In this document: positions 1-1,070 of the stretch, piece by piece | How the letters are laid out: every line of letters begins with the position of its first letter | How positions within the stretch are numbered: the first letter of the stretch is position 1 | Assembly: GCF_003334355.1 (NCBI RefSeq) | Contig: NZ_QOWP01000054.1 | DNA length: 11,358 nt | DNA from: Escherichia coli | Lineage (GTDB): Bacteria; Pseudomonadota; Gammaproteobacteria; Enterobacterales; Enterobacteriaceae | Strand: one strand, 5' to 3' | Notes under the pieces: generated by a model | Database searches by the model: none | Told to the model about the DNA's origin: nothing | What the model saw: the letters and a program-made list of their open reading frames with translations, nothing else | Translations under genes and position numbers: made by a program

Positions 1-24
1 GGAAAAACGAGTATTTTTAGTCAT
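1..24 (-). CDS. IS3-family transposase OrfA, first 8 codons only (partial, continues beyond window start)
   Basis: ATG at 24..22 on the minus strand, preceded by AAGAGG 8 nt upstream; the frame is open to the window edge. Confidence 0.45.
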
Positions 25-78
25 CCTGTTTACCTCTTTCTCAGGGAGTTTAGTCTCCAGGATTTCCGGGGCGGTTCG
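1..78 (-). mobile_element. Left end of an IS3-family insertion sequence (IS629/IS1203-like), truncated by the window edge and inserted into IS2
   Basis: Reverse complement of 1..78 reads a terminal-repeat-like GAACCGCCCCGGAAATCCTGGAGACTAAACTCC, then a Shine-Dalgarno AAGAGG, then ATG ACT AAA AAT ACT CGT TTT TCC (MTKNTRFS). I recall this as the start of IS629-type orfA, from memory only. Identity to IS2 begins only at about 79. Confidence 0.5.
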
Positions 79-79
79 C

Positions 80-196
80 CAGCGCCTGCTCGGCAAGAAA
101 ACGATGGAAAATGAACTCCTCAAAGAAGCCGTTGAATATGGACGGGCAAAAAAGTGGATAGCGCACGCGCCCTTATTGCCCGGGGATGGGGAGTAA
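80..196 (+). CDS. insC: IS2 InsC (OrfA) C-terminal fragment, 5'-truncated
   Basis: Frame reads ...[38 protein letters not shown] then stop TAA at 194..196, matching the InsC C-terminus as I recall it. Upstream of about 79 the same frame encodes unrelated residues. Confidence 0.8.
148..154 (+). other. A6G slippery heptamer for the programmed -1 frameshift that gives the InsCD (OrfAB) transposase
   Basis: AAAAAAG at 148..154, just before the insC stop and at the start of the insD frame. Confidence 0.7.
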
Positions 197-1059
197 GCTT
201 AGTCAGCCGTTGTCTCCGGGTGTCGCGTGCGCAGTTGCACGTCATTCTCAGACGAACCGATGACTGGATGGATGGCCGCCGCAGTCGTCACACTGATGAT
301 ACGGATGTGCTTCTCCGTATACACCATGTTATCGGAGAGCTGCCCACGTATGGTTATCGTCGGGTATGGGCGCTGCTTCGCAGACAGGCCGAACTTGATG
401 GTATGCCTGCGATCAATGCCAAACGTGTTTACCGGATCATGCGCCAGAATGCGCTGTTGCTTGAGCGAAAACCTGCTGTACCGCCATCGAAACGGGCACA
501 TACAGGCAGAGTGGCCGTGAAAGAAAGCAATCAGCGATGGTGCTCTGACGGGTTCGAGTTCTGCTGTGATAACGGAGAGAGACTGCGTGTCACGTTCGCG
601 CTGGACTGCTGTGATCGTGAGGCACTGCACTGGGCGGTGACTACCGGCGGCTTCAACAGTGAAACAGTACAGGACGTCATGCTGGGAGCGGTGGAACGCC
701 GCTTCGGCAACGATCTTCCGTCGTCTCCAGTGGAGTGGCTGACGGATAATGGTTCATGCTACCGGGCTAATGAAACACGCCAGTTCGCCCGGATGTTGGG
801 ACTTGAACCGAAGAACACGGCGGTGCGGAGTCCGGAGAGTAACGGAATAGCAGAGAGCTTCGTGAAAACGATAAAGCGTGACTACATCAGTATCATGCCC
901 AAACCAGACGGGTTAACGGCAGCAAAGAACCTTGCAGAGGCGTTCGAGCATTATAACGAATGGCATCCGCATAGTGCGCTGGGTTATCGCTCGCCACGGG
1001 AATATCTGCGGCAGCGGGCTTGTAATGGGTTAAGTGATAACAGATGTCTGGAAATATAG
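154..1059 (+). CDS. insD: IS2 transposase InsD (OrfB), 301 aa, DDE integrase-type catalytic domain
   Basis: The 301-aa ORF ([21 protein letters not shown]...[11 protein letters not shown]) matches IS2 InsD over its full length as recalled. Stop TAG at 1057..1059. Confidence 0.92.
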
Positions 1060-1070
1060 GGGCAAATCCA
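1030..1070. repeat. IS2 right terminal inverted repeat (IRR)
   Basis: TTAAGTGATAACAGATGTCTGGAAATATAGGGGCAAATCCA; the characteristic IS2 terminus ends in CA at 1070. Confidence 0.8.

Follow-up and report, generated by a model that had tools for sequence, protein, structure and literature searches.

INTRODUCTION

The closest described counterparts of the locus studied here are IS2F, the IS2 copy in the receptor gene yoeA of Escherichia coli K-12 MG1655, and the IS629 copies of the Stx phages VT2-Sakai and VT1-Sakai of O157:H7. In K-12 MG1655, as in strain NCTC9040, IS2 splits yoeA into two fragments of 306 bp and 198 bp. The Sakai copies carry the depositor labels 'insertion sequence:IS629' and 'inverted repeat from left end of IS629', and they served as annotated comparators in this work. 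During formation of IS2 minicircles, the right inverted repeat (IRR) acts as the donor end, and only the left inverted repeat (IRL) serves as the recipient end; the IS3-family consensus tip is CA-3' (PMC3299598). It has also been reported that missing target duplications usually result from adjacent deletions or from recombination between IS copies, and that 14 of the 83 IS movements in three LTEE populations were deletions associated with IS150, an IS3-family element (PMC11708052). For IS629, a 'sloppy' transfer of the first strand, to sites other than the opposite end of the element, has been proposed to explain adjacent deletions (bioRxiv 10.1101/2023.06.07.543989).

Here, we analyzed the left edge of an 11,358-nt stretch of E. 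coli DNA (the window, i.e., this whole stretch), which an earlier note had read as an IS629-like element nested within an IS2 that itself disrupts a receptor gene. An IS629/IS1203 end does abut a truncated IS2 at this edge, but the structure is not a nest in its present state, and the junction between the left tip of IS629 and IS2 nt 340 is very likely a deletion or recombination scar rather than an intact insertion of one IS into another.

RESULTS

Four IS3-family pieces lie at the left edge of the window

Positions 1 to 1445 of the window are a pile-up of four IS3-family pieces, and this segment sits in a degraded CP4-44-type island between cobU and yeeX. Together with the adjoining receptor gene, the pieces are as follows.

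1 to 78, minus strand: left end of IS629/IS1203 (IS nt 78 to 1); remainder of the element outside the window, on its left
79 to 1070, plus strand: IS2 remnant (nt 340 to 1331); IRR kept; IRL, promoter, and insC codons 1 to 83 gone
1071 to 1258, plus strand: fragment of an older IS3-family element, N-terminal region of orfB; annotated by PGAP as a partial, frameshifted 'IS3 family transposase'
1260 to 1445, minus strand: left-end remnant of an IS2-like element (IRL and start of orfA), 75 to 89% identical to IS2 nt 14 to 245
1445 to 1945, minus strand: yoeA pseudogene, N-terminal ~167 codons (signal and plug domain of a TonB-dependent receptor)

The IS2 copy has lost its left end

The full 1,331-bp IS2 copy of NCTC9040, bounded by a 5-bp GCCAC duplication, was used as reference. 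The earlier note had put the start of IS2 identity at about position 79; the alignment set it exactly there, at IS2 nt 340, from where identity ran without gaps to the right tip of IS2 at position 1070 (991 of 992 positions identical). Over the same IS2 nt 340 to 1331, identity to IS2F of K-12 was 99.7%. To the left of this boundary, the insC frame is open across positions 1 to 78, and translation confirmed that it encodes unrelated residues there (26 in number) before the InsC sequence sets in with QRLLGKK. The last 38 codons of insC (84 to 121, Q84 to E121) are kept at positions 80 to 196, followed by the other hallmarks of the element, i.e., the A6G frameshift motif at 148 to 154, an intact insD/orfB reading frame of 301 aa at 154 to 1059, and the right inverted repeat at 1030 to 1070, which ends with ...GGGGCAAATCCA at 1070. 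The insD product matched the NCBIfam model NF006918 (IS2 TnpB) over residues 1 to 301 with 727.6 bits, compared to a cut-off of 597. The remnant thus resembles IS2F in its intact insD, its A6G motif, its right inverted repeat, and its orientation relative to yoeA and cobUST. It differs from IS2F in lacking nt 1 to 339 and in lying inside an IS3-family fragment instead of yoeA.

The lost 339 nt hold IRL, the promoter, and the first 83 codons of insC with its start codon. Neither IRL nor IS2 nt 1 to 339 was present in the window or in the 13.4-kb locus of strain PSS-12 (see below), save for a separate, complete variant of ~96% identity. Production of OrfAB requires the insC start. Because both this start and IRL, the obligatory recipient end, have been lost, the remnant should be unable to make OrfAB; it should also be immobile, in agreement with what the earlier note proposed. 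On the right side, IS2 is flanked by GCAAG (1071 to 1075), its presumptive target; with the left end deleted, there is no second copy to which this sequence can be compared. Duplications of 5 bp were seen at the control IS2 copies, namely, that of NCTC9040 (GCCAC) and the IS2 variant of PSS-12.

The IS629/IS1203 copy is near-identical to Sakai IS629 and has an altered left tip

The reverse complement of positions 1 to 78 matched depositor-labelled left ends of IS629 in Stx phages, including VT2-Sakai, at 77 of 77 positions over IS nt 2 to 78 (E = 9e-33). In all, 169 phage records matched it at 95 to 100% identity, VT2-Sakai and VT1-Sakai among them. As judged from these alignments and those of IS2, the identity of both elements is far beyond chance. 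The 25-bp IRL of IS629 is at positions 54 to 78, and the orfA ATG is at 24 to 22 on the minus strand, with GAGG 8 nt upstream and the first eight codons (MTKNTRFS) at 24 to 1. The IS1203 transposase CDS annotated by PGAP in PSS-12 starts at window position 24, on the minus strand, with the same MTKNTRFS. An IS3-family end, a Shine-Dalgarno sequence, and an orfA start on this strand, all recognized in the earlier note, are hereby borne out.

Positions 1 to 7400 of the window equal positions 108941 to 116340 of the E. coli PSS-12 chromosome (NZ_AP027697) except for two bases. Both differences, at window positions 390 and 786, fall within the IS2 fragment, and at each of them, the deviating sequence is the allele of a 96% IS2 variant located 2.8 kb upstream in PSS-12, a pattern that points to short-patch gene conversion or to cross-talk of repeats during polishing. 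PSS-12 served as the stand-in for the DNA to the left of window position 1; given the two differing bases, the source strain of the window may depart from it in that DNA too.

In PSS-12, the IS1203 copy is complete (1,310 bp; positions 4769 to 6078 of locus L001). It is identical to the copy of strain E110019 over nt 2 to 1310 and 99.92% identical to Sakai IS629 over the same range (1 difference in 1,309 positions). With the IS629/IS1203 of the VT2-Sakai and VT1-Sakai prophages, it shares the length of 1,310 bp, the inverted repeats, and an orfA/orfB arrangement with a programmed frameshift. The right tip is canonical, reading TGAACC at L001 4769.

The left tip, in contrast, departs from the Sakai element, since nt 1 is C and not T. 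Window position 78 is G on the plus strand, i.e., C on the IS strand, and this base fits neither element, since IS629 nt 1 and IS2 nt 339 are both T. In all seven other IS1203 copies examined, as well as in Sakai IS629, the tip base is canonical, with A where the window has G. The left tip of the window copy hence reads 5'-CG rather than 5'-TG and lacks the terminal TG...CA, and the change at nt 1 is one of only two differences from Sakai IS629 in 1,310 nt. A C-G in place of the T-A terminal pair probably cripples the left end of this copy.

The far flank in PSS-12 does not hold the missing part of IS2

The earlier note had suggested looking past the other end of the inserted IS for the missing 5' part of IS2 and for a target duplication of 3 to 4 bp. 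Neither was there in PSS-12. Past the right end of IS1203, L001 4279 to 4768 is island DNA without IS2 nt 1 to 339, and in strain S88, the same island DNA runs straight into an IS66-family (ISEc43-type) element. The right tip of the PSS-12 copy is placed after the 25th nt of an ISEc43-like tnpA. The element is flanked by ...GCGAAAAG on one side and by CCAGCGCC, starting with CCAGCG, on the other, so that AAG faces CCA (or GCC, if base 78 is taken as flank) and no duplication of 3 to 4 bp is seen. Control copies of IS1203/IS629 had the duplications AAA, AAC, GGAG, and CTTT, the last being that of the Sakai copy.

The sole other IS2-type sequence in the 13.4-kb PSS-12 locus is the complete variant mentioned above (95.7% identity; L001 2948 to 4278), which has its own 5-bp duplication and is a separate insertion. 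It lies 1.7 kb to the left of the window and ~0.5 kb past the far end of IS1203, and it could supply a related transposase in trans.

Two queries were used to follow the junctions through 5,426 complete E. coli genomes. The IS1203/IS2-340 junction (query 1 to 160) was found as one contiguous match only in PSS-12, and the same was true for the junction between the right end of IS2 and GCAAG (query 1000 to 1140). No single-piece match to the junction was obtained in the plasmid collection, and the exact 43-nt junction was absent from the metagenome and species-representative genome collections. The earlier note had regarded the structure as a strain-specific event, and this distribution is in line with that.

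yoeA is cut off by an IS2-like element

The earlier note held that IS2 disrupts the receptor gene and placed an intact IS2 at the same yoeA position in K-12. Neither statement was upheld. The IS2 of the window ends at 1070, inside the older IS3-family fragment, and the yoeA remnant at 1445 to 1945 (minus strand) is one uninterrupted piece, which matches positions ~10 to 160 of ~660-aa TonB-dependent receptor models. The gene is cut off at 1445 by the IS2-like remnant at 1260 to 1445 and not by IS2 proper; the left end of this remnant was seen by comparing inverted repeats with the IRL of IS2, and it is also present in K-12. In K-12 MG1655 (IS2F) and NCTC9040, IS2 sits at the equivalent of window positions 1640 to 1644, where GCCAC is duplicated. 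This site, 570 bp from the end of the window IS2, is empty here, and positions 1071 to 4641 are colinear with K-12 and NCTC9040 once their IS2 is removed.

In strains without the window IS2, the old IS3-family fragment extends leftwards as ...CCAGATGGGAC followed directly by GCAAGCTTGC. Since the old fragment is continuous in these strains, IS2 of the window was inserted into it at GCAAG. The old element is better preserved in strains AH20K059 (L011) and NCTC11151 (L012). No NCBIfam match was obtained for its 35-aa fragment in the window, which is too short.

Some further features of the surroundings were noted. The site of IS5H in K-12 (window 3223 to 3226, a 4-bp overlap in the alignment) is also empty, i.e., the pre-insertion state is kept. 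An imperfect palindrome of ~41 nt (2151 to 2191; 90% self-match on the opposite strand) is found in intergenic or pseudogene DNA between yoeA and the cob genes, and it is in K-12 too. Farther to the right are three tRNA-Asn(GTT) genes, at 7046 to 7121 (minus strand), 9454 to 9529 (minus strand), and 11278 to 11353 (plus strand), which we take to be the asnV/asnU/asnW cluster of K-12, around ORFs fitting nac, cbl, and yeeO by position and size.

Nested insertions and similar scars occur in other strains

The chromosome of CP131_Sichuan (L004) and five further genomes contain an IS2 interrupted by an IS1203-like element, with IS2 nt 1 to 361 on one side, nt 359 to 1331 on the other, and an AAA duplication at nt 359 to 361. 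Plasmid pPE164 (L007) likewise carries an IS1203-like element inside IS2, at nt 204 to 206, with an AAC duplication and both halves of IS2 present. These nests are like the window in the two element types involved, in their head-to-head orientation, and in having the insertion point in the insC region. They differ from it in that both halves of the host IS and a 3-bp duplication of the guest are retained, while the structure of the window, judged from PSS-12, has neither. On plasmid pEC21Z014-165K (L009), IS1203 abuts IS2 nt 66, and there is no IS2 5' part and no duplication; this junction is the same kind of scar as that of the window.

Other contacts between such elements were also seen. Strains C7 (L008 2578/2579), C3, and OkiPb01675 show an exact tip-to-tip contact, in which nt 1 of an IS2-type element is joined to the left tip of an IS1203-like element with no duplication. 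BEN5202 (L010 5077/5078), AH20K059 (L011 3769 to 5078), and NCTC11151 (L012 3769 to 5078) each carry a 96% IS1203-like element, at three different positions within or beside the old IS3-family remnant that lies upstream of yoeA, the site in NCTC11151 being equivalent to window positions 1116 to 1118. Clear duplications of 3 to 4 bp were present at two of these three copies. The neighborhood of the old remnant is repeatedly targeted by IS1203-like elements.

A bias of IS1203 toward the head-to-head orientation beside the 5' part of IS2 was considered and rejected, with 24 genomes showing the observed orientation and 29 the opposite one (within ~0.6 kb). The IS1203-like element near ISEc43 in strain MB19 was also dismissed as an ancestor, as it is a 96% variant located 65 bp away and represents an independent event.

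DISCUSSION

Several explanations may be put forward for an IS629/IS1203 tip joined to IS2 nt 340. The simplest is an insertion of IS629/IS1203 into IS2 at nt ~340, in which case the missing 5' part of IS2 would follow directly past the other IS629 end. The window itself stops inside IS629, and the nests in CP131_Sichuan and pPE164 lie only 19 bp and 136 bp away in IS2, with the same relative orientation, which would be in keeping with such an event. However, this junction occurs in PSS-12 alone, and that genome has unrelated DNA in the far flank and lacks a duplication. The reciprocal junction (IS2 nt 243 to 342 plus the right end of IS1203), searched for in the 5,426 E. coli genomes, also gave only two-piece matches among the best 30 of 39 high-coverage records, and we consider this explanation very unlikely. 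More improbable still is an artefact of assembly or polishing, by which reads of different IS copies were mis-joined into a chimeric IS629/IS2 junction. IS-rich regions are prone to mis-assembly, and the two positions at which the window departs from PSS-12 are both in the IS2 fragment, each with the allele of the neighboring 96% variant. Yet the window and the complete PSS-12 chromosome, which are separate records two bases apart, share the same junction down to the odd base 78, and this junction joins non-homologous positions of two unrelated IS elements, a product that repeat-collapse errors do not normally give.

A nest may, on the other hand, have existed in an ancestor. The junction between the IRL of IS629 and IS2 nt 340 would then be the original insertion junction and only the other one secondary, the product either of homologous recombination with another IS1203 copy, in direct repeat within the ISEc43-like tnpA, or of a deletion on the IRR side. 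IS1203-like elements do insert in this part of IS2 elsewhere, and missing duplications are commonly due to recombination between IS copies (PMC11708052). Recombination partners would also have been available, because PSS-12 has about ten IS1203-type ends (11 places for each of two queries). Against this, no genome with the nested intermediate at nt 340 to 342 was found, and an original junction should have kept the canonical tip base, whereas window position 78 is G and all seven other copies have A. We regard such an ancestral nest as possible, though not as the probable course of events.

Our preferred reading, a scar of deletion or recombination, can be placed in a sequence of four steps. 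An IS2-like element would first have cut off the receptor gene yoeA at 1445 and would itself have been truncated against another old IS3-family element, that of the orfB fragment at 1071 to 1258. Canonical IS2 would then have inserted into this old orfB fragment at GCAAG, with its right end at 1070, and thus not at the IS2F site of K-12. The last step would have been a rearrangement at the left end of an IS629/IS1203 copy that removed IS2 nt 1 to 339 together with neighboring DNA and joined the tip to nt 340. This order and the sub-mechanism are inferred, since no intermediate genome was found; none of the genomes in the collections had IS2 intact at 1070/1071 or a duplication-flanked IS1203 at the same ISEc43 position.

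The last step could have taken any of three routes. An IS-adjacent deletion that started from the copy in the ISEc43-like tnpA is a realistic candidate, although we would put it at somewhat less than an even chance. Homologous recombination between the copy in the ISEc43 tnpA and a second copy nested in IS2 seems rather doubtful, and a deletion on the other side of a nested copy is unlikely. The IS150 scars of the LTEE (PMC11708052) and the IS629-associated deletions of O157 (bioRxiv 10.1101/2023.06.07.543989) are alike in having a complete IS, non-contiguous flanks, one of them truncated, and no duplication. In the window, the tip base is altered as well, which is not predicted by the mechanisms proposed for these scars. 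Nor is the G at position 78 predicted by any of the three routes, as clean strand transfer or homologous exchange would keep the canonical tip. Microhomology was considered as the basis of the join, with AAAGAAC present both in the ISEc43 flank and at IS2 nt 333 to 339, and was rejected, since a deletion through AAAGAAC gives a sequence other than that observed.

The tip change is suspicious because it falls at the exact terminal base and at the exact aberrant junction, in a copy that is otherwise different at only 1 of 1,309 positions. There is a small chance that the T-to-C change at IS629 nt 1 is a mechanistic scar of junction formation, left for example by imprecise strand transfer or by error-prone microhomology end-joining of the IEE/PrimPol type. 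If true, the window would offer a case from nature in which an IS629 copy was immobilized at one end by its own aberrant rearrangement.

The arrangement described here is an ordinary strain-specific rearrangement and a case of IS decay, made up of known element families and known types of IS-mediated rearrangement. The locus is already annotated in these terms in RefSeq, and the significance of the finding beyond correct annotation is small. It does show that yoeA is not interrupted by IS2 in the K-12 manner in every strain; here, the yoeA fragment is in its state before IS2F, and a separate IS2 inserted 570 bp away and was later beheaded. Genome scans should not take the contact of an IS end with a truncated IS as evidence of an intact nested insertion, and should check both the far flank and the target duplication. 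More broadly, the locus illustrates the accumulation and mutual erosion of IS elements in a degraded CP4-44-type island beside cobUST.
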